A stretch of 64,000 nt of DNA from an uncultured bacterium (GTDB lineage Bacteria; Fermentibacterota; Fermentibacteria; Fermentibacterales; Fermentibacteraceae), in the NCBI GenBank assembly GCA_964569245.1, contig CAZMTK010000003.1:58485-122484 (forward strand), given 5' to 3'. Positions within the stretch are counted from its first letter, which is position 1. Every line of letters starts with the position of its first letter. The notes beneath the pieces were generated by a model. The model was given only the letters and a program-made list of their open reading frames with translations. It searched no databases and had not been told where the DNA came from. The position numbers and the translations under genes were made by a program. This document shows positions 8,243 through 52,503 of the stretch, in pieces.

Positions 8243-8327
8243 TGGTGCGAGAGGGGGGATTCGAACCCCCACAGGTTTCCCCACCAGGTCCTAAGCCTGG
8301 CGCGTCTGCCAGTTCCGCCACTCTCGC
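8243..8327 (-). tRNA. tRNA-Leu (anticodon TAG), 85 nt with a long variable arm
   Basis: Reverse complement reads GCGAGAG-TGGCGGAACTGGCAGACGC-GCCAGG-CTTAGGA-CCTGG-TGGGGAAACCTGTGGGG-GTTCGAATCCCCC-CTCTCGC-ACCA. Features are a 7-bp acceptor stem, a T-loop GTTCGAATC, anticodon loop CT-TAG-GA, and CCA encoded. Confidence 0.85.
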
Positions 8328-38146: not shown

Positions 38147-38374
38147 GTGGACAAGACGATACTGGAGCTCGAGAAGGGCGAGGATCTGCTGAGGGTGGTC
38201 CTCAAGGAGTTCAGGGGCCGCCAGTACATAGACGCCAGGATGTTCTACATGTCCGAGAACGGGGAGTGGCTGCCCACGAAAAAGGGTCTTAGCATGACCC
38301 CCGAGATGGCGGCGCAGGTTTCCGAGGCGATAGGCAGGGCTCTGGCCGAGCTCGAGTCGGGAAAGAAGCCTTAG
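38147..38374 (+). CDS. PC4/p15-like ssDNA-binding protein (YdbC-like)
   Basis: RVVLKEFRGRQYIDARMFYMSENGEWLPTKKGLSMT matches the PC4 fold pattern. 75 aa, GTG start. Confidence 0.55.
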   Translation: MDKTILELEKGEDLLRVVLKEFRGRQYIDARMFYMSENGEWLPTKKGLSMTPEMAAQVSEAIGRALAELESGKKP

Positions 38375-40725
38375 CCGCACTCCGAATAGCCGCAGTTCAG
38401 CGCGCAGGAGACGCAGCCCGACTCGTACTTGAGGGGTCCGCCACAGCTCGGGCAGGCCCCCGCGTGGTTCTGGAGGTCGTCGTCCCTGAACACCTCTGGA
38501 GCCCTCGCCTGAACGGGCTCCTCGACAGTGCCCGGCAGTCCCTCGAGGCGGTTCCCGGTGTGCCACTCCAGCGTCTTTCCTATTGCATCGGCGCAGGACA
38601 GTACTCTGTCGCTCCCCTGCCAGACGACCCTGTGGCAGCTTATCCCCTTGAGCTCGCGGACCACTGCGTCGGGCGGGATGTGCGATCTCAGCGCCAGCGA
38701 CACCAGCCTGCTGAGGGCTTCCGACTGGCTGGCGGCGCAGCCGCCGGCCTTGCCCATCTGGGTGAATATCTCGACCGGGCCGAACTCGTCCTCGTTGATC
38801 GTTATGTAGAGGTTCCCGCAGCCGGTGCGGACGCGCCGCGTGATCCCCGTGGTGACCTCCGGACGGGGCCTCGGGCCGGCGGCGGGCTTCTTCTCCGCCG
38901 GACACTCAGCGGCGCTCTCCTGCTGCCTCCCGATGTTGAGGACCTGCCTGTCCCTGCTCCTGTCCCTGTAGACCGTGACCCCCTTGCACCTGAGCCTGAA
39001 CGCGAGCTTGTAGACTTCGGCCACGTCTTCGCGGGAGGCGCTCTCGGGGAGGTTCACGGTCTTCGACACGGCGTTGTCGGTGTACTTCTGGAAGGCGGCC
39101 TGCATCCTCACGTGGAACGAGGGGGGGACGTCGTGCGAGGTGGCGAATATCCTCTGGACCTCGCTCGGCACGGCATCCAGGCCCCTGCAGGAGCCCCGTT
39201 CGACGATCTTCTCGATCACTTCCGGGGTGGCGAAGCCCCTCTCCCTCGCGACCCGTGCGAAGGAGGGCACCATCTCGTGGAGCTCGTCGCCCTCGTCGAG
39301 GATGTTCCTCCGCTCGTACGCCAGGGCGAACACGGGCTCGATGCCGCTCGCGCATCCCGCGAGGATGCTTATCGAGCCGGTGGGCGCAATTGTTGTCACC
39401 GTGGCGTTCCTCATCGGAGGGAGACCCTGGCTGTCGTAGATGCTTCCCCTGAAGTTGGGGAACGGGCCGCGCTCCCTGGCCAGTTCCTCGCTGGCCTGTC
39501 TGGCCCTGTCCTCGATGAAGCTCATGAGCTGCTCGGCGAACCTGAGAGCCTCCTCGGAGTCGTAGGGGAGACCCAGATGGAACAGCATGTCGGCGAAGCC
39601 CATCACCCCGAGGCCGATCTTCCTGTTCCCCTCGACCATGCGGGCTATCTGCGGGAGGGGGTATCTGTTGACCTCGATGACGTCGTCCAGGAATCTGACG
39701 GCGTTCTTCACGGTGCGGTCGAGCAGGGCCCAGTCGACTGCGGACGATCCGTCGGGCTTCGCCGTCAGCATGGCCGCCAGGTTTATCGAGCCCAGGTTGC
39801 ACGCCTCGTATGGAAGGAGAGGCTGCTCGCCGCAGGGATTCGTGGCCTCTATCCTGCCGAGGGCGGGCGTGGGGTTGGCCTCGTTCACTCGGTCGATGAA
39901 GATGATCCCCGGCTCTCCGGACGCCCATGCGCTCTCCACGATGTGCTCGAACAGCTCGGCGGCCGGGATGCTCGATACGGGCTCACCGCTCCTTGGGTTG
40001 ACCAGATCGAAGTCCCCGCCCCTCTCCAGGGCGTCCATGAATCTGTCGGAGACAGCGACCGAGAGATTGAAGTTGTTCAGCTTCTGCATGTCGCGTTTGG
40101 CGAGGATGAAGTCGAGCACGTCGGGATGGTCGATGCTCAGCACGGCCATGTTGGCCCCTCTGCGGACACCGCCCTGCTTTATCGTCTCGGTCGCCCTGTC
40201 GAAGACCGTCATGAAGGAGATCGGGCCGCTGGATATCCCCCTTGTGGACAGGACCACGTCGTCCTTCGGTCGGATCCTGGAGAAGGAGAATCCCGTCCCG
40301 CCGCCGCTCTTGTGGATGAGCGCGGTGTTCTTGACCGCCTCGAAGATGCTCTCCATGTCGTCCTCCACCGGGAGGACGAAGCAGGCGGATAGCTGTCCCA
40401 GCTCGCGCCCGGCGTTCATCAGCGTGGGGGAGTTCGGCAGGAATTCGAGCCTCGCCATCATGTTGTTGAAGCATACGGCCCACTTCCCGGAGTCCCCCCT
40501 GAAGCGGTCCTCGGCGGAGGCCACCGAAACGGCCACGCGCCAGAGCATCTCCGAGGGGGTCTCGAGAATCTCCCCGTCGGTGGAGCGCTTCAGATAGCGC
40601 TTGTTCAGGACCACTTCGGCATTCGAAGAGAACCGGGGGGAGATCCTCTCCTCCCGGTCCTCCAGCGCCGCCTGCCTCTCGAACTGCCCGAACAGGTCCT
40701 GACCGGGAGAAGCAGCCCCTCTCAA
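38371..40725 (-). CDS. nrdJ: Ribonucleoside-diphosphate/triphosphate reductase, class II (adenosylcobalamin-dependent)
   Basis: LNKRYLKRSTDGEILETPSEMLWRVA, NPCGEQPL active site, TIAPTGSIS, and a C-terminal CPSCGG...C zinc site. The 5' end is uncertain: the track start (GTG 40803) lies inside a promoter-like element. Candidate starts are TTG 40725 (with a GAGGGGG SD) or GTG 40614. Confidence 0.8.
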   Translation of the reverse strand: MRGAASPGQDLFGQFERQAALEDREERISPRFSSNAEVVLNKRYLKRSTDGEILETPSEMLWRVAVSVASAEDRFRGDSGKWAVCFNNMMARLEFLPNSPTLMNAGRELGQLSACFVLPVEDDMESIFEAVKNTALIHKSGGGTGFSFSRIRPKDDVVLSTRGISSGPISFMTVFDRATETIKQGGVRRGANMAVLSIDHPDVLDFILAKRDMQKLNNFNLSVAVSDRFMDALERGGDFDLVNPRSGEPVSSIPAAELFEHIVESAWASGEPGIIFIDRVNEANPTPALGRIEATNPCGEQPLLPYEACNLGSINLAAMLTAKPDGSSAVDWALLDRTVKNAVRFLDDVIEVNRYPLPQIARMVEGNRKIGLGVMGFADMLFHLGLPYDSEEALRFAEQLMSFIEDRARQASEELARERGPFPNFRGSIYDSQGLPPMRNATVTTIAPTGSISILAGCASGIEPVFALAYERRNILDEGDELHEMVPSFARVARERGFATPEVIEKIVERGSCRGLDAVPSEVQRIFATSHDVPPSFHVRMQAAFQKYTDNAVSKTVNLPESASREDVAEVYKLAFRLRCKGVTVYRDRSRDRQVLNIGRQQESAAECPAEKKPAAGPRPRPEVTTGITRRVRTGCGNLYITINEDEFGPVEIFTQMGKAGGCAASQSEALSRLVSLALRSHIPPDAVVRELKGISCHRVVWQGSDRVLSCADAIGKTLEWHTGNRLEGLPGTVEEPVQARAPEVFRDDDLQNHAGACPSCGGPLKYESGCVSCALNCGYSECG

Positions 40726-40781
40726 AACAGCCCCCTCGAAGCCAGAAGACCGGCAAAAGGATGTGACCCCGCAATGCTCGC

Positions 40782-40810
40782 AGTGTATGCAGAGCAATCG
40801 CACGTGTCAA
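40782..40810 (-). promoter_or_regulatory. Sigma-70-like promoter, TTGACA-17nt-TACACT, reading toward nrdJ
   Basis: On the minus strand, TTGACA lies at 40810..40805 and TACACT at 40787..40782, with a 17-nt spacer. It sits in the divergent intergenic region between nrdJ and the ECF sigma gene. Confidence 0.45.
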
Positions 40811-40915
40811 TATGCTGGGGGTGCCCGACCCCGACCACACAACCCGTAGTTGGACCGTTCCGCACCAGGACTGCCGTTGCGCCCCGGGGCTCTGCCCCAA
40901 TAGAATACGAGCGAG

Positions 40916-41500
40916 GTGATGCGGATGCCTGGTGACCCGGCCCCTGTGAAAGACGAATTCGAGAGCGAGATCCTCCAGTTCCTCGACGGGCTCTACGGAT
41001 ACGCGTTGCACTTGTCCCGCAACAGGGACGACGCCTGCGACCTCGTGCAGGAGACCTACGCGAGGGCCTTCAGGGCTCGGAGCCAGTACCGGCTGGGAAC
41101 AAACGCGCGCGCCTGGCTGTTTGCAATACTCAGGAACACCTTCCTCAACGATCGCAGAGCCCAGGGGCGGGCTCCGAAGACCGTCCCGTGCGAATGGATC
41201 GACGAGCTGGGCGAGGGAGGCGACGGAGAGGAGCTCCCTGCGAGGAGGACCCAGGATCCCCAGAGGTGTGTCCTGAACGACATCCTCAGGGAGGACATCG
41301 ACCGGGCCCTGGAGGAGCTCCCGGAGGAGTTCAGGAGCGCCGTGGTCCTCTGCGACGTGGAGGAGATGTCGTACGCCGAGATAGCGGAGATACTCCAGAT
41401 ACCGATAGGTACCGTCAGGTCCAGGATACACAGGGGTCGGGCGATACTCAAGAGGAAGCTGAGCGACTGGCGGTCAGGCACCGGGAGGGGTGGGAGTTGA
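40916..41500 (+). CDS. ECF (group 4) RNA polymerase sigma factor
   Basis: Region 2 (LVQETYARAFRA...ARAWLFAILRN) and region 4 (SYAEIAEILQIPIGTVRSRIHRGR), 194 aa. Confidence 0.85.
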   Translation: MMRMPGDPAPVKDEFESEILQFLDGLYGYALHLSRNRDDACDLVQETYARAFRARSQYRLGTNARAWLFAILRNTFLNDRRAQGRAPKTVPCEWIDELGEGGDGEELPARRTQDPQRCVLNDILREDIDRALEELPEEFRSAVVLCDVEEMSYAEIAEILQIPIGTVRSRIHRGRAILKRKLSDWRSGTGRGGS

Positions 41501-41721
41501 GATGTTCTGATGCTGCCCGCAGGATCCACGATTACGTCTCCGGCGAGCTGGAGGGAGATGATCGGGAGAGGCTCGAGAAGCATCTCGAGACCTGCGAGGA
41601 CTGCAGGTCCTGCGTGGACGAGAACATGGCGCTCCGGAGCAGGGTGAGGGACCTCATGAGGGTTTCCGCGCCAGCTTCGCTCCGTGCCGAGGTCGTGCGC
41701 CTCTCGCAGGCGCAGGTCTGA
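41497..41721 (+). CDS. Zinc-finger (ZAS-type) anti-sigma factor, small and soluble
   Basis: 74 aa with C...H...HLETCEDC (Hx3Cx2C). TTG start overlaps the sigma stop (TTGA). No TM segment. Confidence 0.6.
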   Translation: MRCSDAARRIHDYVSGELEGDDRERLEKHLETCEDCRSCVDENMALRSRVRDLMRVSAPASLRAEVVRLSQAQV

Positions 41722-41725
41722 GGCG

Positions 41726-42199
41726 TTGCCGGGACGCGACCGGCTGCTGCCGGCAGCCCTGGCAGCCGCGTGTGCGGCGGCGCCTCCGCTTGCCGCGCTC
41801 ATTCTGTTCGGGCGTCCAGCCAGCACCATCTCCGATGCGGGCTCCCTTGCAAGGCTGGGCTGCGTGCTCGCTGCAAGCGCCGAGGCTCCCCCTGGAAGGC
41901 CGGCGCTGGACAGCCTGGCCGCGTGGGCGGGCTTCCGTCTGCCCGCCGGGGCTCTCCTGGAGCCCGGAACTTCAGGAGCGGCCTGCAGTCTCTTCCCGTT
42001 CAGGATCGCAGCCTTCTCCTTCCCTTCCGACTCCTCCGTCATGGTTCTGGTCTGCTGCCCGGTTCCCCTGGCACTTCGCGATCCGGGTCCCGGAGGGCCG
42101 AGGGTTCTGTACGGAGGCGGGAGAACTGCGGTCATCGTGCTCCCGGGCTCCGGGGATTCCGGAGCCGCCAGGGCGGCCGGATCGCTGGAGCCGGTATGA
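41726..42199 (+). CDS. Hypothetical secreted protein
   Basis: TTG start 5 nt after the anti-sigma stop, and a signal-peptide-like LLPAALAAACAAAPPLAALILF. The stop overlaps the next ATG (ATGA), which supports translation. Confidence 0.4.
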   Translation: MPGRDRLLPAALAAACAAAPPLAALILFGRPASTISDAGSLARLGCVLAASAEAPPGRPALDSLAAWAGFRLPAGALLEPGTSGAACSLFPFRIAAFSFPSDSSVMVLVCCPVPLALRDPGPGGPRVLYGGGRTAVIVLPGSGDSGAARAAGSLEPV

Positions 42200-42678
42200 C
42201 TCCGGCGCTCAGGTGGGGAGCGGCATGCCTCGCGGCCCTGCTCGCGTGCTGCTGCTCGAAGGGGGGAGGAGATGCCGCCCTGGAGCAGGCGCCGCCTGCG
42301 CCCCCGTCGCTTCCGGGAAGGTTGTTCGCCCCCGACGGAACTCCGGCGGAGGTGTCGGCTGATTCCGCGATAGTGCTGTACCTCTGGCTGCCGCTGCCGG
42401 GACATCCCGGGCCGGAGTCCGACCTCGAAGCCATAGCCGAAACAGGGACGGCCGGCAACGTGGCGGCCTTCGCAGTTCAGACCAGCCCGGCCGCGAGGAA
42501 CTCCGCACAGGAGCAGGTCAACTCCCTCGGAATAGTGCTCCCCGTCTTCCTCGCCGATTCGGCGGCAGCCAGATGCATCCCTCCAGGAGATCTCCCGGTG
42601 GCCGTGCTCTTCGGACCAGGCGGCTCTACGGAAGTGGAGACGGGATTCGGCGCTGTGGAGCGCCTGCTCTCGAAGTGA
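42196..42678 (+). CDS. Thioredoxin-fold (TlpA/ResA-like) lipoprotein lacking the CxxC active site
   Basis: Lipobox LLACC. The redoxin-like layout places VLYLW-LPLPGHP where WCxPC would be, followed by VAAFAVQTS...LGIVLPVFLAD...LPVAVLFGPGGS. Confidence 0.5.
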   Translation: MTPALRWGAACLAALLACCCSKGGGDAALEQAPPAPPSLPGRLFAPDGTPAEVSADSAIVLYLWLPLPGHPGPESDLEAIAETGTAGNVAAFAVQTSPAARNSAQEQVNSLGIVLPVFLADSAAARCIPPGDLPVAVLFGPGGSTEVETGFGAVERLLSK

Positions 42679-43475
42679 GCCTGGAGCTGGCTCCCGGCTG
42701 CAGGCCGTTCATCGCGGTGTCAGACATCCACCTCTTCCCGGAGGAGAAGCCCCATCCGGGCAGAGAGGGCTTTCTGTCCTTCCTCGGGGAGATCGCCCGG
42801 GCCAGTCCCGGCGAACTCTGGATCGTGGGAGACCTGTTCGATTTCTGGCACGAGAGGCGTGGAGCGCCCCCCGGCTTCTCCAGGGTCCTCGCAGCGCTGG
42901 CGACGGCATCCGGTGCCGGCTGGAGCGTGACGTTCCTGCCGGGGAACCACGACATGTGGGTGGGCGAAGCCTTCTCCGCGGCGACAGGCGCCAGGGTCCT
43001 GGATCGGGGGCCGGTCGAGGTCCTCGTCGAGGGCAGGAGGGTCCTGCTGGCGCACGGCGACGGACTCGGAAGGGGGGACTGGGGCTACAAGCTCCTCCTG
43101 GGGCCGTTCCTGAAGTCCGGTGTCGCGAGAGCGCTGTTCCGGGCCCTGCCGACGGGCGCCGGCGGGTTCCTCGCGGAGCTCGCGTCGGGCACCAGCCGAC
43201 GCATCCTCAGGAGGCAGTCCGACGTCGTCCCCCGGCACCTGCGCGCGTGGGCAGACGGGATGATCCGCTCAGGGATGGACATTGTGATAACAGGGCACTC
43301 TCACGTGGCAGGGGCCAGGTCCGCCGGAGGAGGGCTCCACATCTCCCTGGGAGACTGGCTCGGCGACTTCCACTACGCATCCTCCGATCCCTCCCTCGGC
43401 CTGCGCCTGGTCCGCTACGAAGCCCCCGGCATCCGGCCAGCAGGACCGCTCGTTGACCCGGGCACGGCAGGGTGA
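42675..43475 (+). CDS. LpxH-like metallophosphoesterase (UDP-2,3-diacylglucosamine pyrophosphatase family)
   Basis: IAVSDIHL, GDLFDFWH, GNHD, GHSH. The GTG start overlaps the upstream stop (GTGA). Confidence 0.6.
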   Translation: MSLELAPGCRPFIAVSDIHLFPEEKPHPGREGFLSFLGEIARASPGELWIVGDLFDFWHERRGAPPGFSRVLAALATASGAGWSVTFLPGNHDMWVGEAFSAATGARVLDRGPVEVLVEGRRVLLAHGDGLGRGDWGYKLLLGPFLKSGVARALFRALPTGAGGFLAELASGTSRRILRRQSDVVPRHLRAWADGMIRSGMDIVITGHSHVAGARSAGGGLHISLGDWLGDFHYASSDPSLGLRLVRYEAPGIRPAGPLVDPGTAG

Positions 43476-44448
43476 GATTTTCGCCTCCATGGAAGCAGGC
43501 GGAGGAATGCTGCTGAGCGTGGTCGTTCCGGCCTTCAACGAGGCCGAGAGCATTCCCGAGCTGGTAGCAGAGACTGCCGGCGCGCTCTCGGGTCGCGAGT
43601 GGGAGATGGTGATCGTAGATGACGGGAGCACCGACTCCACATGGGAAGAGATCCGCAGGGCGGCCTCCGCCTACCCCGTCACGGGCCTCAGGTTCGGGAG
43701 GAACCACGGAAAGGCCGCAGCGCTCTCGGCCGGCTTCGCCGCCGCCGGAGGGGCGATCATCGCGACGATGGACGCCGATCTCCAGGACGATCCGGCGGAG
43801 ATCCCCGCGATGGCCGATATGCTCGCAGAGTCGGGCCTTGGCGTAGTGAGCGGATGGAAGAAGGAGCGCAGGGACCCTCCGTCGAAGAGGCTCCCCTCCA
43901 AGTTCTTCAACGCCGTTGTGCGCCGCGCCACCGGGATACCCCTGCACGACTTCAATTGCGGACTCAAGGTGTACCGTGCCGAGGCGGCCAGACGCATGGA
44001 CCTGTATGGAGAGATGCACAGGTACACCCCCGTGCTGGTGTCCCAGCTTGGCTGGACAGCCGGGGAGAAGCCCGTCAACCACAGGCCGAGAATGCACGGA
44101 CGCAGCAAGTACGGCCCGGCGAGGTTCTTCCGAGGATACGCCGACCTTCTCACGGTGCTCTTCCTGCACCGCTACTCGTTCAGGCCTCTGCACTTCTTCG
44201 GAGGGATCGGCACGACGCTCTTCGCCGGAGGGCTGGGCATCTCCATCTACCTCACCATCCTCAAGATCGCAACCGGGGCCTCGATCGGCAGGAGGCCCCT
44301 CCTCCTCCTGGGCGTGTTCCTCATGATGATAGGATTCCAGTTCGTCTCGCTCGGCCTTCTCGGCGAGATGCAGCTCCGCCTGCTGCCCGGGAAGAGGCTC
44401 TACACGGTGGTGGAGACCGCGGGGCGCCCGACCGGCTCGGGGACATGA
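43453..44448 (+). CDS. GT2 polyprenyl-phosphate glycosyltransferase (DPM1/GtrB/ArnC-like)
   Basis: VVVPAFNE, DDGSTD, DAD motifs and two C-terminal TM helices. The true start may be M13 or M19, at 43489 or 43507. Confidence 0.8.
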   Translation: MTRARQGEIFASMEAGGGMLLSVVVPAFNEAESIPELVAETAGALSGREWEMVIVDDGSTDSTWEEIRRAASAYPVTGLRFGRNHGKAAALSAGFAAAGGAIIATMDADLQDDPAEIPAMADMLAESGLGVVSGWKKERRDPPSKRLPSKFFNAVVRRATGIPLHDFNCGLKVYRAEAARRMDLYGEMHRYTPVLVSQLGWTAGEKPVNHRPRMHGRSKYGPARFFRGYADLLTVLFLHRYSFRPLHFFGGIGTTLFAGGLGISIYLTILKIATGASIGRRPLLLLGVFLMMIGFQFVSLGLLGEMQLRLLPGKRLYTVVETAGRPTGSGT

Positions 44449-45551
44449 GGCTCATCGCCGCCGGCCCGTTCCCTCCTCACAGGGGCGGGATCTCCCAGTT
44501 CGGCATGAGGCTCGCCGACGCCCTGGAGGCCCGCGTTCAGGTGCTCAGGGCCGGGTTCTCGCGGCTCTATCCCCGCGCGCTCTTCCCCGGTGTCTCCCAG
44601 TTCGATCCGGCTGGCGGGGCCAGGGTGGCCACAGTCGCGACGATGGATTCCTGCAGCCCGCCGTCATGGCGTCGAACGAGGCGGGAGCTGTCCCGCCTCG
44701 GCGCCGATGCGGCAGTGGTCCAGTGGTGGCACCCGTTCTTCGCCCCCGCCCTGCACTGGAGCCTGCCCTCCGCGGGCGCGGTGCGCAGGGCGGCGGTCTG
44801 CCACAACATCCATCCCCACGAGGGCTTCCCGATGGGCAGGGCTCTGGCGAAGTGGTTCCTCGGAAAGGCGGAGGTCCTTGTCGTGCACAGCGCAGCCGAC
44901 GAGGAGAGGGCGCGGGCGCTGCTGCCCCGCGCCAGGCTCCTGAGGCTGTTCCACCCGGTCTACGACCAGTACCTGGCCTTCGACCGCGGCAGGGGCTCCG
45001 CGAGGAGCGCACTCGGCTACGGCGAGAGCGAGAGAGTCATCCTCTTCTTCGGGCTCGTGCGCCCCTACAAGGGGGTGGAGGATCTTGTCGAAGCCTTCCG
45101 GGAGATGCCTGGAGACTGCAAGCTGCTTCTCGCAGGAGAGTGCTACTCCGGCGCGGAGCCGATCAGGAAGGCGCTCGAGGGGACAGGCATCGCCCCCAGG
45201 GCTCGATGGGACGAGCGCTTCATTCCCGATGCCGAGGTCTGGGCCTACTTCAGGGCGGCCGACCTCGTAGTCCTGCCGTACAGGAGCGCCACCCAGAGCG
45301 GCGTTGCCCAGATAGCCGTCTCATTCGGCAGGCCCATGGTCCTCACGAGGACCGGCGGGCTGCCGGAGCTGATAGACGAGGGGCGAACAGGCTTCCTGGC
45401 CGAGCCCTGCTCGCCTGGAAGCCTCGCGGCAGCAATGAGGAGAGCGCTGGAGCTTCCGCAGGGAGCGGAGATGGAGGGCCGCGTGGCGCAGGTGGCGGCG
45501 AGGTTCTGCTGGGATCGCTATGCAGATTCCCTGCTGGAGGCGATCCTTTGA
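44445..45551 (+). CDS. GT4 (GT-B fold, family-1-like) glycosyltransferase
   Basis: C-terminal FGRPMVLTRTGGLPELI...GFL (EX7E region). The ATG overlaps the GT2 stop (ATGA). Confidence 0.75.
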   Translation: MRLIAAGPFPPHRGGISQFGMRLADALEARVQVLRAGFSRLYPRALFPGVSQFDPAGGARVATVATMDSCSPPSWRRTRRELSRLGADAAVVQWWHPFFAPALHWSLPSAGAVRRAAVCHNIHPHEGFPMGRALAKWFLGKAEVLVVHSAADEERARALLPRARLLRLFHPVYDQYLAFDRGRGSARSALGYGESERVILFFGLVRPYKGVEDLVEAFREMPGDCKLLLAGECYSGAEPIRKALEGTGIAPRARWDERFIPDAEVWAYFRAADLVVLPYRSATQSGVAQIAVSFGRPMVLTRTGGLPELIDEGRTGFLAEPCSPGSLAAAMRRALELPQGAEMEGRVAQVAARFCWDRYADSLLEAIL

Positions 45552-46441
45552 AGGTGTTCGTCGCCGGTGCGGGAGGCTTCGTCGGAGGCGCAGTCGCGGC
45601 TCTTCTCGAGAGCGCGGGTCACGAGGTCGCCGCTCACGTCCGCTCCCGCGACGGCGACGTCCGTCCCGGGTCGGTTCCATCGGATACCGGCCTGGTGGTC
45701 AATTCCGCCGGACGGCTTGGCGGGGCCGGAGTGGACGAGGCTGCGCTGGATGCCGGCAACGTCTCTCCTGCAAGAGTGCTGGCTCACGAGGCGGCTCGGC
45801 TCGGGATCCCTGTCGTGCATCTCGGCACGCCGGGCGTCGCAGGCCTCGTGGCAGGCGCCTCCGAGGACCTGCCGCCGGCCCCCTGGGGCGCCTACGAGCG
45901 ATCGAAGGCGCGTGCCGAGGAGATCCTCCGCTCGATCGTGCCCGAGGGAAGGCTCACGATACTGAGACCCGATTTCGTCTACGGCCCGGGCGACGTCCAC
46001 AAGGCCGCACTGTTCAGGCAGGCGGCGAAGGGCTGGTTCCCCCTGGTAGGAACTGGAGGGGCCAGGATAAGGCCCACCTATGTCCTCGATGTAGCGAGGG
46101 CCTGCATGGAGTCCATGCCGGGGGGGAGGCTCGAGGGCGGCGTCTTCCACATAGGCGGGCCGGAGGTCGTCACGGTGTCGGAGCTGATAGCGGCCGTAGG
46201 CAGGGCACTGGGAAGGCGCGTACTGCGCATTCCCGTGCCAAGGGCGGCGTTCCGCGCGGCGATCGCACTGGGGCTCTTCAGGGGAGTGCTGTCCGAGAGC
46301 CGGTATCTGCTGTTCGGGAGGGACCACTTCGTCTCCATCGAAAAGGCGTCCTCGGCCGGCTTCGTTCCCGGCACGGATCTGGCGCGGGGGCTGGAGGCCG
46401 CGGTGTCCTGGCTCAGAGCCGAAGGCATGGTGACGCGTTGA
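45548..46441 (+). CDS. NAD-dependent epimerase/dehydratase (SDR family)
   Basis: (M)KVFVAGAGGFVGG Rossmann motif and YERSKARAE (YxxxK). The TTG start overlaps the GT4 stop (TTGA). Confidence 0.8.
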   Translation: MKVFVAGAGGFVGGAVAALLESAGHEVAAHVRSRDGDVRPGSVPSDTGLVVNSAGRLGGAGVDEAALDAGNVSPARVLAHEAARLGIPVVHLGTPGVAGLVAGASEDLPPAPWGAYERSKARAEEILRSIVPEGRLTILRPDFVYGPGDVHKAALFRQAAKGWFPLVGTGGARIRPTYVLDVARACMESMPGGRLEGGVFHIGGPEVVTVSELIAAVGRALGRRVLRIPVPRAAFRAAIALGLFRGVLSESRYLLFGRDHFVSIEKASSAGFVPGTDLARGLEAAVSWLRAEGMVTR

Positions 46442-47394
46442 GCGCCTGGAGCAGGAACTTGATCGTGCGCTGGGCATCCAGGGCTGTTCTCGCAGTGCTG
46501 GTGCTCTTCGCTCTAGCTTCGGTGGCTGCGAGGTGGAGTGAGATCTCCGGTTCGTTCGAGAGGGTGAGCTGGTCTCCGGATCCGCTTGCACTCGCCGCTT
46601 CGGCGGTGATCCTGGCTGCATCGCTTGCATTCAATCCATTCGGCTGGATGATGCTCGCGAGAGAGCTGGGATCGGACACGTCCGCCGCCGGGCTGAGGGC
46701 TGCGTGGTTCGCCAGCCAGCTCGGAAGATACATGCCCGGCAAGATCTGGCTCTTCGCGGGCAGGATCGGGTTCCTGAGGAGCGAAGGGCTCTCCACTGCG
46801 CGCGCAGTCGCTGCCTCGGTCTGGGAGCTGGTCGCGGGCGCTGCGGCGGCAGGCGCCGTGGCCCTGCCCTGCATGCTGCTCTCCGGCGCCACGGACATCG
46901 CCCCTGCTGTGAGGACCGCAGCCACGGCGGCAGCCGCGGCGATGTTCCTGCTGCCCCTGCTGGGCCCCGTCCAGAAGGCTGCGTTCGCTCTGAAGGGCAG
47001 GTCCGCCTTCACGGGGATCCGGACTTCGGCAGGGCTGAGGGTGGCGGGCCTCTTCTGCACCCTCTGGGTGGCTCGCGGGCTCTCCCTCTACCTGTGGCTC
47101 ACCGGGCTGGGGCTGGAGACCCGCGGGTTCTGGCCCGTCATGGCTGCCGCGCCGCTGTCGTGGCTCGCGGGGTATATTGTCTTCGTAGTTCCCGGAGGCA
47201 TCGGCGTGAGGGAGACCGTGACGGCTGTGCTGGCGGCCCCTCCCGGCACGGCCGGCCCCGTTGTGGCCGCCTGCCTTTGCCAGACGGCGCTCATGGCCGT
47301 TCTCGAGATCCTTCTGGCGCTTCCCGCCTTCAGGGCGGCTCCTGGAGTCCGCGACACAGCGAAAGGCGGAGCAGATGGTGCGGATTCAGGCTGA
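46438..47394 (+). CDS. UPF0104 / lysylphosphatidylglycerol-synthase-TM (flippase-like) family membrane protein
   Basis: Multi-TM, with GRYMPGKIWLFAGRIGF and VVPGGIGVRET, which match my recollection of PF03706. The TTG start overlaps the epimerase stop (TTGA). Confidence 0.55.
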   Translation: MSAWSRNLIVRWASRAVLAVLVLFALASVAARWSEISGSFERVSWSPDPLALAASAVILAASLAFNPFGWMMLARELGSDTSAAGLRAAWFASQLGRYMPGKIWLFAGRIGFLRSEGLSTARAVAASVWELVAGAAAAGAVALPCMLLSGATDIAPAVRTAATAAAAAMFLLPLLGPVQKAAFALKGRSAFTGIRTSAGLRVAGLFCTLWVARGLSLYLWLTGLGLETRGFWPVMAAAPLSWLAGYIVFVVPGGIGVRETVTAVLAAPPGTAGPVVAACLCQTALMAVLEILLALPAFRAAPGVRDTAKGGADGADSG

Positions 47395-49651
47395 TCGAGG
47401 GAGCTGGCTGGCAGCGCTGGGTCTCATGGCTGCCCTGTCGGCTGCTGTGTACTGGAGCGTCCTGTCGTCCCCGCGCCTTCCGGGGGGCGATCTCAGCGAC
47501 ACCGTCCACCAGGGCTACCCCTTTCTCCAGTTCACAAGGCAGGCTCTCCTCGAATGGCGCCTGCCCCACTGGAATCCCTTCATCTATTGCGGAATCCCCT
47601 TCTACTCCTCGTTCTCCGCCCCTGTCACGTATCCGATCCGGGGCGCACTCCTGCTCGCAGGAGCCGAGGCTGCGGTCCGATTCCTCTTTCCCGTGCACCT
47701 CGTCATCGGAGGCATGTCGGCCTGGCTTCTCCTGGGGGCTGTGGGCGTGTCCCGCCAGGGGAGGCTGGCGGGTGCCCTCGCCTTCGCAGCCGGCGCCTGG
47801 GCGAACACCCTGTTCTATGCGGGGCATGGCAGCAAGATCATCTGCTGGAGCTACCTCCCCCTCCTGCTGTTCGCCTGCGAGCGATGGCTCGCCACCAGGC
47901 GGCTCTGGTTCGCAGCCCTGGGAGGCCTGTGCTTCGGCATGCAGGCGCTCTCGAGCCATCCCCAGATGCTGCTCTACAGCGGCATGGCCGCCCTCCTGTG
48001 GTCAGCGGCGAGGTCCCTGCAGTCGCGCTGCCTGCGGACGGCGGCGGCCGCCGCCGGCGGCCTGGCGCTCATGACCGTCCTCGGGCTCTCGGTCGGAGCT
48101 GTGCAGCTTCTTCCGGGGTATGATTTCTCCAGGTACTCCAGCCGGGGTGAGAACCTGTCGCTGGACCAGTCGCAGAGCTACTCCCTGCCGCCCGAGGAGA
48201 CGCTCGTCATGGTCTTCCCCCGCCTGTTCGGCTACAGGCACGGCTTCGCCGACAGCTCCGCCGGGGGCATCCCGCTCTACTGGGGGAGGCTCGGTCTGAG
48301 GCTCTCCAGCGAGTTCACCGGGGTCTCGGTAGCGCTTCTCGCGCTGATCGGCCTGCTCGCCGGGAGGTCGGCCTGCCGATGGCCCCTGCTCGCGATCCTG
48401 GTCACGGGGCTAGTCGTCTCGTGGGGCGGCTATACCCCCGTCTATTCTCTCCTCTACCGGCTGGTGCCGCTCTTCAGGAAGCTCAGGGCCCCCCACATGG
48501 CGGCGTTCCTCAGCACGTCGGCTCTCTCGCTGATGGCCGGCCCGGGCTTCGACGCGCTCCTCGCGAAAGGGGGCCGATCGTGGAAGGCGGCCCTCGTCTT
48601 CTCTGCATCGTGCCTGGTCGCCTTCATTGCGGCAGGCCCTATCGTGGAGAGCCTCCAGGCGGGATGGTGGGATAGGGCGGGGGTCGCCCCCTCCGACTGG
48701 ATCGTACAGCGGCGCATAGACATGGCTGCTGGTGACTTCCTGCGTGCCTGCGTCTCGGCCGCCTTGGTCGGGCTCGCCGGGCTGCTGGCCTCGAGGGGCA
48801 GGCTGACCCCGGGCGGCGCGCTGGTGCCTGCGCTCTTGCTCATGTCGCTGGAGCTCGTCCCGGTAGACAGGGATTTCCAGGTTTTCCTGCCGGACACCAG
48901 AATCGAGTCTGTGTGTCCGGACTATTCCCGGCTGGCCGCCGCCGCCGGCGGTGGGAGGGTTCTCCCTGGCGGAAACGAGATGATCCCGTCAGGAGTGCTG
49001 TCGGTCGCCGGGTATCACGCGGCGAGAACGCAGGCCAACGACGACATGCTGGAGCTTGTCTCCGGCGGCGGGCTGGCCGGGGCGAGGCTCACAGCCTTCA
49101 CGGTGCTCTTCGAGTCCGGCGTCGTAGTACCCTACGACTCGCTGATAGCGGCTGTCTCCGGAGGCCCGGGCGGCGTGCCGGAGGGGCTCGAGAGACCGCA
49201 GCCGAGAGTCTTCCTGGCGTCGGACTGGGCGGTGGATCCTGCATCGGCCGGGGGCTCCTTCGATCCCGGCGGCCCCCCGCCGGAGAGGCTCACGGTGCTG
49301 GACAGGGATCCCGGCATCCCGCACGGCGGCGACTCCTCCGGAACGGCCCGGATGGTTGCGGACCTGCCCGAGCTGGTCGTCGTGGAGACCTGCGCGGGCT
49401 CTCCCTCCATACTGGTCCTCGCCGACACCTGGTATCCCCGGTGGCGCGCCGAGGTCGACGGCGTCGAGACACCCCTTCTCAGGGCCAACTGCTGGCAGAG
49501 GGGCGTGGCCGTGCCTGCAGGGGAGCACACAGTGAGCTTCAGGTTCGACCATTCGGACGTGGGAATCGGCGCCCTCGCCAGCGTGACCGGGATCGCCCTG
49601 ACTGCGGGGATCGGCCTCCTCGAGCTGCTCTCGCGCCGCAGGAGGGCCTGA
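47375..49651 (+). CDS. YfhO-like large polytopic membrane protein (putative GT-C glycosyltransferase) with a C-terminal extracytoplasmic domain
   Basis: About 758 aa. The N-terminal roughly 550 aa hold many TM helices, and the C-terminal roughly 200 aa are soluble. Size, topology and the operon partners (GT2 plus flippase-like) fit YfhO/GT-C. Confidence 0.45.
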   Translation: MVRIQADRGSWLAALGLMAALSAAVYWSVLSSPRLPGGDLSDTVHQGYPFLQFTRQALLEWRLPHWNPFIYCGIPFYSSFSAPVTYPIRGALLLAGAEAAVRFLFPVHLVIGGMSAWLLLGAVGVSRQGRLAGALAFAAGAWANTLFYAGHGSKIICWSYLPLLLFACERWLATRRLWFAALGGLCFGMQALSSHPQMLLYSGMAALLWSAARSLQSRCLRTAAAAAGGLALMTVLGLSVGAVQLLPGYDFSRYSSRGENLSLDQSQSYSLPPEETLVMVFPRLFGYRHGFADSSAGGIPLYWGRLGLRLSSEFTGVSVALLALIGLLAGRSACRWPLLAILVTGLVVSWGGYTPVYSLLYRLVPLFRKLRAPHMAAFLSTSALSLMAGPGFDALLAKGGRSWKAALVFSASCLVAFIAAGPIVESLQAGWWDRAGVAPSDWIVQRRIDMAAGDFLRACVSAALVGLAGLLASRGRLTPGGALVPALLLMSLELVPVDRDFQVFLPDTRIESVCPDYSRLAAAAGGGRVLPGGNEMIPSGVLSVAGYHAARTQANDDMLELVSGGGLAGARLTAFTVLFESGVVVPYDSLIAAVSGGPGGVPEGLERPQPRVFLASDWAVDPASAGGSFDPGGPPPERLTVLDRDPGIPHGGDSSGTARMVADLPELVVVETCAGSPSILVLADTWYPRWRAEVDGVETPLLRANCWQRGVAVPAGEHTVSFRFDHSDVGIGALASVTGIALTAGIGLLELLSRRRRA

Positions 49652-49654
49652 AGA

Positions 49655-51790
49655 GTGGCGAGAAGAAAGGCTGCGGAGGCCGCCGCCGCCTGGCTGGGCG
49701 TGCTGCTGACCGCGGCTGCCGCGGCCGTCTTCGCGTTCGTCCTGTGGCCTTCGTGGAAGCCCCGGGTCGAGGCGTTCTTCTCGGGATTCGACCCCCTCGC
49801 GCGCTGGCCCCTGATAGCGCTCTCCGTGCTGTCCGCCCTGCTGAGCCAGGCGTTCGCGCCCTGCGCGTGGCAGAGGGTGCTCCGGGCGCTGTCCCTGCCC
49901 GGCTCGCACGGTTCCGACTCGAAGCGCAACTGGTACGTGACGCAGATGGGCAGCTACATCCCGGGGAAGTTCTGGATGTACATCGGGAGGGCGGCCTTCC
50001 TCGGCGCGCGCGGCGCCGGCGGCGCGAAGAGCAGCGCGGCCATCGCCCTGGAGAACATCTACCTCATGGTGTCGGTATGCCTCATGGCGCTGGTCGCTAT
50101 ACCCTTCACCGGCGGCACCCGCATGCCCGGGGGAGTCAGGGCAGCGCTCGCAGTCTCAATGGGAGCCACGCTCCTGGCGCTTCTTGCGCCCGGCATCAGG
50201 AGGGGGCTGGCGGCGCTGATCACGAGGAGGCCCGGCGGGGACCCCGGCGTACTGCCGGAGCTCTCCCTGGGCAGCCAGGCTGTCATGATAGGGTTCGACA
50301 TGCTCTCCTGGACCTTCAGGGGCGCTTCGCTCTTCTTCTGGTTCCTCGCGGCGGGTGCGGGCGCTGGCAGAGAGGTCCAGATGCTCTCCGTCTGCCTGCT
50401 GGCCATGCCCGTCTCCTGGCTCGCGGCACTGCTCCTCGTGATCGTGCCCGGGGGCATCGGTCTGCGCGAGTCCATCCAGGGGGTTCTTCTGCAGGAGTTC
50501 GCAGGAGCGTCTCTGGCCGTCGCCACTACCATCGCCCTCTCTCACAGGATCGTGCTCATCGTCTCCGAGGGAGTCTTCGCGGCCGGCGCGCTCGTCCTCG
50601 ACGGCCTCTGGAAGAGGCGCCCCTCGATGATGAGACATCTCCGCCAGTCGGCGAGGCTCGCGGCGTGCCTCCTGCGCGCCAGGCTGTTCATGATGGGCGT
50701 CGGGACCCCGCCGCCCCCTGTGAATCTCACCTTCTCGGTCACGAGGAGGTGCCAGTCGCGCTGCCGGACCTGCTACATCTGGAAGGCCCCTCCCCTCGAG
50801 GAGCTGTCGCTGGCGGAGATAGAGGCGCTCTTCCGGGAGATCGGCTGGACCTACTTCTTCAACGTCTCGGGCGGCGAGCCCTTCCTGCGGGACGACCTGC
50901 CGGAGATCGTGGGCCTCGCCTGCAGACACCTCGATCCCGCCGTCATCCACATCCCCACGAACGCCCTCCTGCCCGCTAGGATCGAGTCCATGACCGCCGA
51001 GATGCTGGAGATCGTCGCCCGCGAGGCGCCTGGAGCCGCGCTCACGATAAAGCCCTCCTTCGACGGGGTCGGGGACCTGCATGACGAGGTGCGGGGGGTC
51101 CCCGGCAACTTCGCCAGGCTCCTCGACACCCTCGAGAGGCTCCTGGCCCTGCGGGAGCGCCACCCCGAGCTGCATGTCGGAGTGGGCACGGTGATCTCCC
51201 GCGAGAACGCCGGAAGGCTCGGCGAGATCATGGAGTTCGCCGGCAGCCTCGGCGTGGACACCTACATCAACGAGATCGCCGAGGAGCGGGAGGAGTTCTT
51301 CAACCGCGGCTCAGGAATAACGCCCGACCCGGACACCTACCGCAGGATCATGCTCGGCTTCAAGGCAGCCGCCGTTGACAGGATGCGGAGCATGAAGCTC
51401 CTCGGGCGGATCACCACCGCGCTAAGGATCGTCTATTACGACCTTGTAGTGAGGATCATGCAGGAGAAGCGCCAGGTGATACCGTGCTACGCGGGAATAC
51501 TGAACGCCCACATCAACGCCGACGGAGCCCTCTGGCCCTGCGCGATAAGAGCCTACGGCTCCGAGATGGGGAGGGCGGGGCGAGAGGGCGGCTTCGCCGG
51601 AGCGTGGAAGTCCGAAAGGGCCCGCGCGATCAGGCGCTCGATCAGGAGGGGGGAGTGCGGCTGCCCGCTCGCCAACCAGGCCTATTCCAACATCCTCATG
51701 CATGCGCCAAGCCTTCTCCGCGCAGCCCGCACTGCGCTGTTCCCGGGCAGGGCCTCCGCGCGGTCTCCCCGGCAGGAAGGAGCAGGATGA
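49655..51790 (+). CDS. Fusion of a UPF0104/LPG-synthase-TM flippase-like membrane domain and a radical SAM/SPASM enzyme
   Basis: Residues 1-340 are paralogous to the gene at 46438 (SYIPGKFWMYIGRAAF, IVPGGIGLRESI). Residues 350-711 carry radical SAM motifs CQSRCRTC (CxxxCxxC), SGGEPFL and IPTNALL. A Cys-rich SPASM-like tail follows (PCYAG...WPC...ECGCP). Confidence 0.7.
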   Translation: MARRKAAEAAAAWLGVLLTAAAAAVFAFVLWPSWKPRVEAFFSGFDPLARWPLIALSVLSALLSQAFAPCAWQRVLRALSLPGSHGSDSKRNWYVTQMGSYIPGKFWMYIGRAAFLGARGAGGAKSSAAIALENIYLMVSVCLMALVAIPFTGGTRMPGGVRAALAVSMGATLLALLAPGIRRGLAALITRRPGGDPGVLPELSLGSQAVMIGFDMLSWTFRGASLFFWFLAAGAGAGREVQMLSVCLLAMPVSWLAALLLVIVPGGIGLRESIQGVLLQEFAGASLAVATTIALSHRIVLIVSEGVFAAGALVLDGLWKRRPSMMRHLRQSARLAACLLRARLFMMGVGTPPPPVNLTFSVTRRCQSRCRTCYIWKAPPLEELSLAEIEALFREIGWTYFFNVSGGEPFLRDDLPEIVGLACRHLDPAVIHIPTNALLPARIESMTAEMLEIVAREAPGAALTIKPSFDGVGDLHDEVRGVPGNFARLLDTLERLLALRERHPELHVGVGTVISRENAGRLGEIMEFAGSLGVDTYINEIAEEREEFFNRGSGITPDPDTYRRIMLGFKAAAVDRMRSMKLLGRITTALRIVYYDLVVRIMQEKRQVIPCYAGILNAHINADGALWPCAIRAYGSEMGRAGREGGFAGAWKSERARAIRRSIRRGECGCPLANQAYSNILMHAPSLLRAARTALFPGRASARSPRQEGAG

Positions 51791-52503
51791 AGCTTCTCGA
51801 GATGACGACCCACGACTTCGCGAGGCTGGAACCCTCGCTCGCCTTCCTCCCCCTCGGTACGGTGGAGGCGCACGACCTCGGCCCGCTGGGAACCGACGCA
51901 GTCGCACCCGAGCGCATAGCCTGCGACCTGGCGGGCAGGTTCGGGGCGGTCGTGCTCCCCACCATGCCATACGGGCTCGTACGCTCTCTGGCCGGCCACC
52001 CCGGCGGCATGTGGCTCACGGAGGATACCTACAGGGCCGTGGTGCTGGAGCTGATAGGCTCGATATCCCTCTCGGGCGTCTCCAGGCTGGTCGTCTTCAA
52101 CGGGCACGGCGGCAACACCGGCGTCCTCAGGGAGGTCCTGCCGGAGGCAGTGGAGAGATACGGGACGATGACGGCTCTGGTTGACTGGTGGGTCGCGGGG
52201 GGCGACATCGCACGGAGGCTCTTCGGCGGCGCCGCCGGGCACGGGGGCTCTGACGAGCTCTCGGTCGTCTTCTCGGACAGGCTGGACATGCTGCCGGAGT
52301 GGGACGGAAGCAGGTCGTGGAGGGCGGTCGAAGGGGCGTGGGCGTGGCCCGCCCCAAGGTCATCGATCAGGTACGACGACGAACCTGCAAGACCCCTCGA
52401 GCGGGGCGCGGCGGCCGAATACTACAGACTCCTGCTGGAGAGGCTGGAAGTGACGGTCGAGGGCATCCTGTCCGGCTGGGACTCGATCCCGCGCATCACC
52501 TGA
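51787..52503 (+). CDS. Creatininase-family (creatinine amidohydrolase/MftE/ArfB-fold) hydrolase
   Basis: LAFLPLGTVEAHDLGPLGTDAV and VFNGHGGN signatures. The ATG overlaps the radical SAM stop (ATGA). Confidence 0.8.
   Translation: MKLLEMTTHDFARLEPSLAFLPLGTVEAHDLGPLGTDAVAPERIACDLAGRFGAVVLPTMPYGLVRSLAGHPGGMWLTEDTYRAVVLELIGSISLSGVSRLVVFNGHGGNTGVLREVLPEAVERYGTMTALVDWWVAGGDIARRLFGGAAGHGGSDELSVVFSDRLDMLPEWDGSRSWRAVEGAWAWPAPRSSIRYDDEPARPLERGAAAEYYRLLLERLEVTVEGILSGWDSIPRIT

Follow-up and report, generated by a model that had tools for sequence, protein, structure and literature searches.

In a 64,000-nt stretch of DNA (the window) from an uncultured Fermentibacteraceae bacterium (assembly GCA_964569245.1, contig CAZMTK010000003.1; host genome GC 67%), a lipoprotein gene (positions 42196–42678, + strand, 160 aa) and the short open reading frame (ORF) directly before it, here called OrfA (41726–42199, + strand, 157 aa), follow the genes for an extracytoplasmic function (ECF) sigma factor and a zinc-binding anti-sigma factor (ZAS). 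The lipoprotein belongs to a family with a predicted TlpA/ResA-type thioredoxin fold and no CxxC motif in any member, and is a Cys-free variant inside the thioredoxin superfamily, not a TlpA/ResA oxidoreductase. We give about an even chance to the interpretation that OrfA and the lipoprotein form a non-redox binding or accessory module on the envelope side, serving the glycosylation pathway of their operon as an output rather than as a sensor. Direct reading of the sequence bore out the coordinates and the ATGA coupling of the two ORFs given in a preliminary description of this DNA: the lipoprotein ATG (42196–42198) overlaps the OrfA TGA (42197–42199). The TTG start of OrfA does lie close behind the ZAS TGA (41719–41721), with four intervening nucleotides; the 5 nt given earlier is the difference between two positions. 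The nearest named relatives are hypothetical proteins from Candidatus Fermentibacteria metagenome-assembled genomes.

The lipoprotein begins with MTPALRWGAACLAALLAC followed by CCS, and its signal peptide ends in a lipobox of the bacterial lipoprotein type ([LVI][ASTVI][GAS]C), LLAC at residues 15–18, judged by eye from the motif. The lipobox Cys after a hydrophobic segment is kept in 18/18 aligned members with an intact N-terminus. Word-indexed searches returned only three close homologues, while HMMER, run exhaustively against 1.84 billion cluster representatives, gave 22 matches at E ≤ 1e-3, three of them long, multi-stretch matches lacking the family motif. In all, about 25 cluster representatives carry this motif; nearly all full-length members have 157–222 aa, and every source with a name is a Fermentibacteria or FCB-group metagenome genome. 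Identity between the window lipoprotein and its distant relatives is 27–51%, a range that leaves out one close homologue at 82%. The family signature reads Y62-x-W64-[LIM]-P66-[LMI]-x-x-[YH]70-x3-E74-x-D76-L77, represented in the window lipoprotein by Y62-L-W64-L-P66-L-P-G-H70...E74-S-D76-L77. Further invariant positions are Q95, R101, Q105, V117, P134, G150, G152 and R156, with D121, L133 and L138 nearly invariant; over the whole alignment, nine columns are invariant and eight nearly so. YLWLPLPGH also occurs in a sensor histidine kinase of a betaproteobacterium (L014, 1429–2901), which was rejected as a chance match and is not a relative.

Conventional family models do not recognize these proteins. 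Of 21 members, none matched a Pfam thioredoxin-clan or other relevant model even at an E-value limit of 10, and the window lipoprotein gave no match to Pfam or NCBIfam at E up to 1, so that it has no significant match to the sequence models of the TlpA/ResA family. An AlphaFold2 model built from a 21-sequence alignment reached a pLDDT of 87.7 and a pTM of 0.74, with its elements in the order of the TlpA/ResA layout, including the N-terminal β-hairpin and the central helix–strand insert. This HMMER-based alignment was needed, as the three close homologues alone gave an unusable model (pLDDT 36). A Foldseek search of the PDB with the model yielded 67 matches at E ≤ 1e-3, the best 50 of which were all thioredoxin-fold proteins; SdbA ranked first (9e-6), followed by PG_2175, ResA, Etrx, FetE, TlpA and DsbF.

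Profile comparisons pointed in the same direction. When the family profile was searched against PDB sequences, ResA or thioredoxin-family chains took 11 of the 12 top places at sub-threshold E values of 0.07–0.4, in register across β2, the insert and the cis-Pro loop. Alignment to the soluble domain of ResA (sequence identical to 1st9_A) using hhalign covered 99 columns with a pairwise E value of 3.4e-4 and a probability of 38%. Shared with ResA in register are the "LP" of the cis-Pro loop, the "V-x-V" of strand β2 and the "P-V-x-L-x-D" of the insert strand. L133-P134 align with ResA L140-P141, pairing P134 with the ResA cis-Pro141; P134 is thus a cis-Pro by position. A profile of the N-terminal half (residues 38–112) matched no PDB sequence, confining the sequence signal to ResA to the C-terminal half. 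Together, the model and the profiles place the lipoprotein as a distant member of the thioredoxin superfamily, predicted to be closest to the TlpA/ResA group, in agreement with the TlpA/ResA-like layout proposed in the preliminary description, which an alignment showing no thioredoxin fold would have contradicted.

The redox centre of that group is absent. In the hhalign alignment, W64 pairs with the first Trp of the ResA segment F-W-G-T-W-C-E-P-C, C74 and C77 of ResA fall on P68 and P73 with G69-H70 inserted between them, and D76 pairs, at low confidence, with ResA Glu80. The register around W64–D76 is of low confidence; since no Cys occurs between W64 and D76, the outcome is the same in any register. 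No W-C-x-x-C stands at the start of helix α1, none of the 25 family relatives has a CxxC anywhere, and the family alignment contains no conserved Cys other than that of the lipobox. The preliminary description had proposed that a catalytic WCxPC was replaced in this protein. The site is indeed Cys-free, with Pro in place of both cysteines; what did not hold is the picture of a recent loss in a single gene, as the whole family lacks CxxC and has invariant positions of its own. Lacking redox-active cysteines, the lipoprotein cannot act as a thiol-disulfide oxidoreductase, and with neither a CxxC nor a match to the family models, we file it outside the TlpA/ResA enzyme family. The peroxidatic Cys in P-x3-T-x2-C with its conserved Arg (peroxiredoxins) and the CxxxC with a distal His (Sco1/SenC) were likewise not found. 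Among Pfam-annotated neighbours in the window, L001, L004, L007 and L008 there is no CcdA/DsbD donor or redox substrate pathway.

Judged from the fold topology, the conserved residues would lie at the C-terminal ends of the two parallel strands and in the first turns of the helices behind them, within the cis-Pro loop and in the loop that follows the final strand, and would thereby surround the former active-site groove. Such a set of conserved aromatic, Asp, Gln, Arg and Asn residues would be expected of a pocket that binds a polar ligand or a partner rather than of a redox centre. At position 70, 12/21 members have Tyr, 6/21 His and 3/21 another residue.

Substitution patterns at orthologous loci, compared for three lineages in all six reading frames, indicate that both ORFs are translated and that purifying selection acts on their proposed frames. 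The ratio of nonsynonymous to synonymous substitution rates (dN/dS) was 0.27–0.29 for OrfA and 0.16–0.27 for the lipoprotein, with the sigma gene as a control at 0.06–0.12. The remaining frames gave values >1, except for the mirror antisense frame, which is low in the sigma control too. OrfA, 157 aa long, shows zero indels among the three close lineages; no frame-breaking indel was seen in either ORF among the compared orthologues, and a homologous OrfA ORF occupies the same slot in 10/10 lineages. Its GC content at the three codon positions is 0.73/0.67/0.74, a weak GC3 periodicity compared with ~0.62/0.46/0.84 in neighbouring genes. Poor codon bias or a lack of conservation had been named beforehand as signs that OrfA might not be translated; codon-position GC is poor, yet the ORF is conserved at the dN/dS given above. 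For the lipoprotein frame 5' of 42196, dN/dS was >2, which identifies the ATG at 42196 as the start of the gene.

In one lineage (L004/L009), the position orthologous to 42196 (L004 6471–6473 and the same site in L009) is CTG. This codon overlaps the OrfA stop as CTGA and has a Shine-Dalgarno sequence, GGAG, 5 nt upstream; signal peptide and lipobox are intact, and the next canonical in-frame start lies 273 nt upstream. Initiation there probably takes place at CTG through translational coupling. Owing to this start codon, the public annotation cuts the protein to 108 aa and removes its signal peptide (P0003). The family is at present annotated as "hypothetical protein", and the present reading corrects the truncated entry.

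Within OrfA, nucleotide conservation of the 3' half (41960–42100) exceeds that of the 5' half, with dS of 0.41–0.50 and 0.46–0.87, respectively; the 5' value is the higher in the two comparisons involving the window, and the halves are equal in L001 versus L004. An ATG-initiated antisense frame, part of a − strand ORF at 41056–42405, crosses 41960–42100, where the + strand OrfA frame is still the best fit to the substitution pattern.

The ten OrfA orthologues share a short basic N-terminus of 5–11 residues, followed by an uncharged hydrophobic segment of 17–23 residues with basic residues on both sides. They also share the motif F-x-[RK]-P-[AP]-[ST]-T and a variable, fast-evolving, β-rich C-terminal domain with the core G-x-H-x-[LIF]-[YF]-P-[YFL]. 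The length of the segment and its basic flanks make OrfA look membrane-anchored rather than cleaved by signal peptidase, so that an uncleaved anchor of ambiguous topology appears more likely from the sequence than secretion. Coupling of OrfA to the lipoprotein, as described earlier, stands; its description as a secreted, signal-peptide protein becomes the less likely one. No relatives of OrfA were found in Pfam, NCBIfam or PDB sequences. An OrfA profile did hit designed repeat TIM barrels in the PDB, which we rejected as spurious since the score summed weak repeats with no single significant stretch; a 9-sequence OrfA profile had no match in the PDB.

To place the pair in its genomic context, loci were collected, in part using five family sequences, and grouped into ten lineages: the window, L001, L004/L009, L007, L008, L010, L011/L017, L012, L013/L018 and L015/L016. 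In 10/10, the genes for the sigma factor, ZAS, OrfA, the lipoprotein, a metallophosphoesterase and a family 2 glycosyltransferase (GT2) stand in this order, with lipoprotein identity falling to 28%, so that the linkage of the pair to an ECF sigma gene in related genomes, which the preliminary description had proposed as a check, was found throughout. A class II ribonucleotide reductase precedes the sigma gene on the opposite strand in every lineage recovered. Where contigs extend further, GT2 is followed by a family 4 glycosyltransferase (GT4), an epimerase, an LPG_synthase_TM-like protein and a large membrane protein; the order GT2–GT4–epimerase–LPG_synthase_TM-like is repeated in L001, L004 and L007, and an ORF of 758–797 aa orthologous to the large 758-aa protein of the window occupies the same place in L001, L006 and L007. 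The junction between ZAS and OrfA is less regular, with gaps of 4 and 5 nt, a 0-nt junction in frame, and overlaps of 4 and 8 nt. This variation in frame and spacing speaks against conserved recoding and against a recent gene split. That a frameshift or a sequencing error had split a single gene into ZAS and OrfA was rejected on the same grounds, both ORFs being intact.

The genes of the operon in the window all lie on the + strand. The ECF sigma factor (40916–41500, 194 aa) has the σ2 and σ4 domains of its class (Pfam Sigma70_r2 1e-13, Sigma70_r4_2 1.5e-19) and is closest to SigH/SigR-type models, scoring 9e-47 against TIGR02947 (SigH_actino), under the cutoff of that model. ZAS (41497–41721, 74 aa) starts at a TTG overlapping the sigma stop (TTGA) and is an RsrA-like protein, with matches to zf-HC2 (1.1e-11) and to TIGR03988 (antisig_RsrA; 2.7e-11 over model positions 1–69 of 77, again under the cutoff). 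It carries C3 and the H-x3-C-x2-C motif of class I ZAS proteins and has no hydrophobic segment. Lacking the transmembrane (TM) segment by which membrane-spanning anti-sigma factors reach the periplasm, it is predicted to be soluble. Across all lineages it is encoded apart from OrfA, and it measures 73–76 aa in the other loci whose lengths were taken.

OrfA and the lipoprotein are followed by an LpxH-like metallophosphoesterase (42675–43475, 266 aa; Pfam Metallophos 1.7e-8), whose GTG start at 42675 overlaps the lipoprotein stop (GTGA) and which matches PRK05340 (2.8e-23) and TIGR01854 (LpxH; 2.3e-21), both under their cutoffs. Downstream lie an ArnC-like polyprenyl-phosphate GT2 (43453–44448; Pfam/NCBIfam, with the ArnC-type NCBIfam match under its cutoff), a GT1/GT4 glycosyltransferase (44445–45551), an NAD-dependent epimerase (45548–46441), an LPG_synthase_TM-like, flippase-like membrane protein (46438–47394) and a hydrophobic protein of 758 aa whose C-terminal region is large and non-hydrophobic (47375–49651). 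The last of these has no Pfam match; by eye it resembles GT-C/YfhO-like glycosyltransferases and may be one. All genes 3' of the LpxH-like gene, through the 758-aa ORF, overlap or abut, and no terminator-like site above chance was found inside the operon.

The same co-directional run ends with a 711-aa radical SAM/SPASM protein (49655–51790, +) and a creatininase-family protein (51484–52503, +), a pairing that we take to recall peptide-modification systems such as mycofactocin MftC/MftE. Elsewhere in the window, a tRNA gene (8246–8327, −) is the sole Rfam match at gathering thresholds.

Upstream of the operon, a single conserved promoter-like element could be read, and it is of the sigma-70 rather than the ECF type. 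It consists of TTGCxx-N17/18-TAGxxT, found before the sigma gene in most of nine loci (the −35 is unclear in L010), and in the window corresponds to a putative promoter at 40877–40906 (+; TTGCGC, 18 nt, TAGAAT) that a scan for consensus promoters did not call. An ECF-type promoter (GGAAC/GGAAT...CGTT) was also looked for before the sigma gene; the sole candidate was rejected, as its spacer is 20–21 nt and its −35 lies inside an NrdR-like palindrome. With a sigma-70-like element as the only one readable, any control of the operon itself by the ECF factor is putative.

Two other conserved elements occupy the intergenic region between the ribonucleotide reductase and sigma genes: gtgtcaatatgctgg (40804–40818) in 6/9 loci and a palindrome, CACAAC-N2-4-GTTGTG (40836–40853), in 9/9. 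They resemble NrdR boxes arranged in tandem, which would be operators of the divergently transcribed class II reductase, and the gtgtcaatatgctgg element overlaps a strong − strand promoter match, TTGACA-17-TACACT (40810–40782). The longest ORF of the reductase (38371–40803, −; 810 aa) covers its own predicted promoter. Orthologues have 783–823 aa, and the true start probably lies ~27 codons downstream of 40803.

In the interpretation that we favour, at about an even chance, the lipoprotein would be lipid-anchored outside the cytoplasm, would have kept the complete TlpA/ResA architecture and would bind a ligand or partner without catalysis, with the membrane-anchored, translationally coupled OrfA as its likely partner. 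Both would be co-transcribed with the genes for sigma, ZAS, the LpxH-like protein, GT2, GT4, the epimerase, the flippase-like protein and the large membrane protein, and the sigma factor would receive its signal in the cytoplasm, by way of the soluble ZAS. The set of GT2, flippase-like and large membrane proteins is one that we take to resemble polyprenyl-phosphate-sugar envelope glycosylation of the ArnC/ArnT or CsbB/YfhO type. Several points weigh against this interpretation. Binding is an inference, and the clustering of the conserved residues was deduced from topology and from an hhalign register of low confidence in the N-terminal part (38%). Moreover, because all loci hold both the sigma/ZAS genes and the glycosylation genes, synteny cannot tell which of the two the pair serves. 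OrfA, for its part, has no sequence match in the PDB, and charge counts do not fix its orientation.

A sensor role, which the preliminary description had put forward alongside binding for this non-catalytic protein, appears unlikely, if worth keeping in mind. Here, a split anti-sigma factor would have OrfA and the lipoprotein as its membrane and periplasmic half; an envelope signal would be bound by the Cys-less fold and relayed by OrfA across the membrane to ZAS, which releases sigma. Together, ZAS and OrfA have 74 + 157 = 231 aa, a size and layout usual for membrane-spanning ZAS anti-sigma factors, which consist of a ZAS domain, one TM segment and an outer domain; the distance from the ZAS stop to the OrfA start stays between −8 and +13 nt in all lineages, and the sigma, ZAS, OrfA and lipoprotein genes are never apart in the lineages recovered. 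However, the alignment of ZAS to the soluble RsrA model runs from end to end and ZAS lacks a TM segment, the 5–11 residues before the OrfA anchor are too few for a cytoplasmic interaction domain if the N-terminus faces inward, the frames and gaps between ZAS and OrfA differ among lineages, and searches with OrfA showed no homology to the outer domains of known anti-sigma factors. A soluble ZAS and at most ~11 residues before the anchor leave no evident route for a periplasmic signal to reach sigma. Of the role suggested earlier, absence of catalysis stands with the missing cysteines, binding would fit the conserved pocket, and sensing loses ground; likewise, of a periplasmic input or output module, input is weakened and output is plausible for a pair that is co-operonic with envelope genes. 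A bolder version, in which ZAS, a single-pass OrfA and the lipoprotein form a three-piece trans-envelope anti-sigma system, whose ex-redox fold senses a periplasmic ligand and controls the SigR-like sigma factor and thereby envelope glycosylation, we regard as a long shot.

Alternatively, the pair could be a lineage-specific chaperone or structural component of the envelope that merely shares the promoter and has no specific link to sigma or to glycosylation. Neither protein is similar to any component of a glycan or sigma pathway, and non-catalytic thioredoxin folds serve in binding and assembly elsewhere; on the other side, the gene order is strict across lineages down to 28% identity, and the stop–start overlaps on both sides argue for co-function with the neighbours, so that we hold this to be rather improbable. 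Catalysis independent of Cys, or a metal site (Sco-like through H70, peroxiredoxin-like, or another activity at the polar pocket), is very unlikely: residue 70, with 12 Tyr, 6 His and 3 others in 21 members, is not a conserved metal ligand, there is neither a peroxidatic Cys nor a CxxxC, and AhpC-TSA, Redoxin and SCO1-SenC gave no match at E up to 10. That one or both ORFs are non-functional, as a decaying redoxin gene or a chance ORF in GC-rich DNA, would suit the codon-position GC of OrfA (0.73/0.67/0.74), the absence of database family matches and the CTG at the lipoprotein start in one lineage. Against this, dN/dS is 0.16–0.29 in the proposed frames with no frame-breaking indels, both ORFs are kept in ten lineages with invariant residues, and the signal peptide, the lipobox and the GGAG 5 nt upstream are retained even with the CTG start, making such decay or chance extremely improbable.

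Among known systems, the closest in architecture is the type of ResA (Bacillus subtilis) and TlpA (Bradyrhizobium), including CcmG/DsbE, StoA, SdbA, DsbF and FetE, which has the same fold, hairpin and insert and, like the lipoprotein, is membrane- or lipid-anchored outside the cytoplasm. F-plasmid TraF, which is periplasmic, the b/b' domains of PDI, ERp29 and calsequestrin use the thioredoxin fold as a scaffold for binding or assembly after loss of CxxC. None of them is known as a lipoprotein of the TlpA type or as part of an ECF sigma operon. FtDsbA1 and SrlA, met in the literature, both have CxxC. One report describes Etrx1 and Etrx2 of Streptococcus pneumoniae as surface lipoprotein reductases with an active CxxC that work with MsrAB2 (PMC3914529). 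Unlike Etrx1/Etrx2 (PDB 4hqs, 4hqz, 2yp6), the window lipoprotein is Cys-free at this site, and no Msr partner is encoded near it.

The regulatory genes are most like SigR–RsrA and SigH–RshA of Actinobacteria, with which they share a sigma factor scoring best as SigH-type, a short soluble ZAS with an N-terminal Cys and H-x3-C-x2-C, and translational coupling of sigma and anti-sigma. They differ in that the window pair falls under the equivalog cutoffs, the host belongs to another phylum (Fermentibacteria), the operon runs into envelope genes instead of thioredoxin-system genes, and no ECF-type promoter was recognised. A limited literature search found no paper on sigma factors of Fermentibacteria and no described family of Cys-free TlpA-type lipoproteins, nor one tied to an ECF sigma operon.

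These findings overturn nothing known, since thioredoxin folds free of Cys are familiar, as are operons with an ECF sigma gene at their head. On the evidence of sequence and prediction, they amount to a well-supported structural and evolutionary observation with a putative function. In a conserved family, unannotated in databases, a TlpA/ResA-type redox enzyme would have been converted, completely and throughout the clade, into a Cys-free scaffold with an invariant pocket of its own. As such, it would be a clean example of the thioredoxin fold reused beyond redox chemistry in the bacterial envelope. Fermentibacteria are a candidate phylum for which these data contain metagenome-assembled genomes only, and the fixed place of the family between a thiol-stress-type sigma/anti-sigma pair and glycosylation genes may offer a handle on the biology of their envelope.

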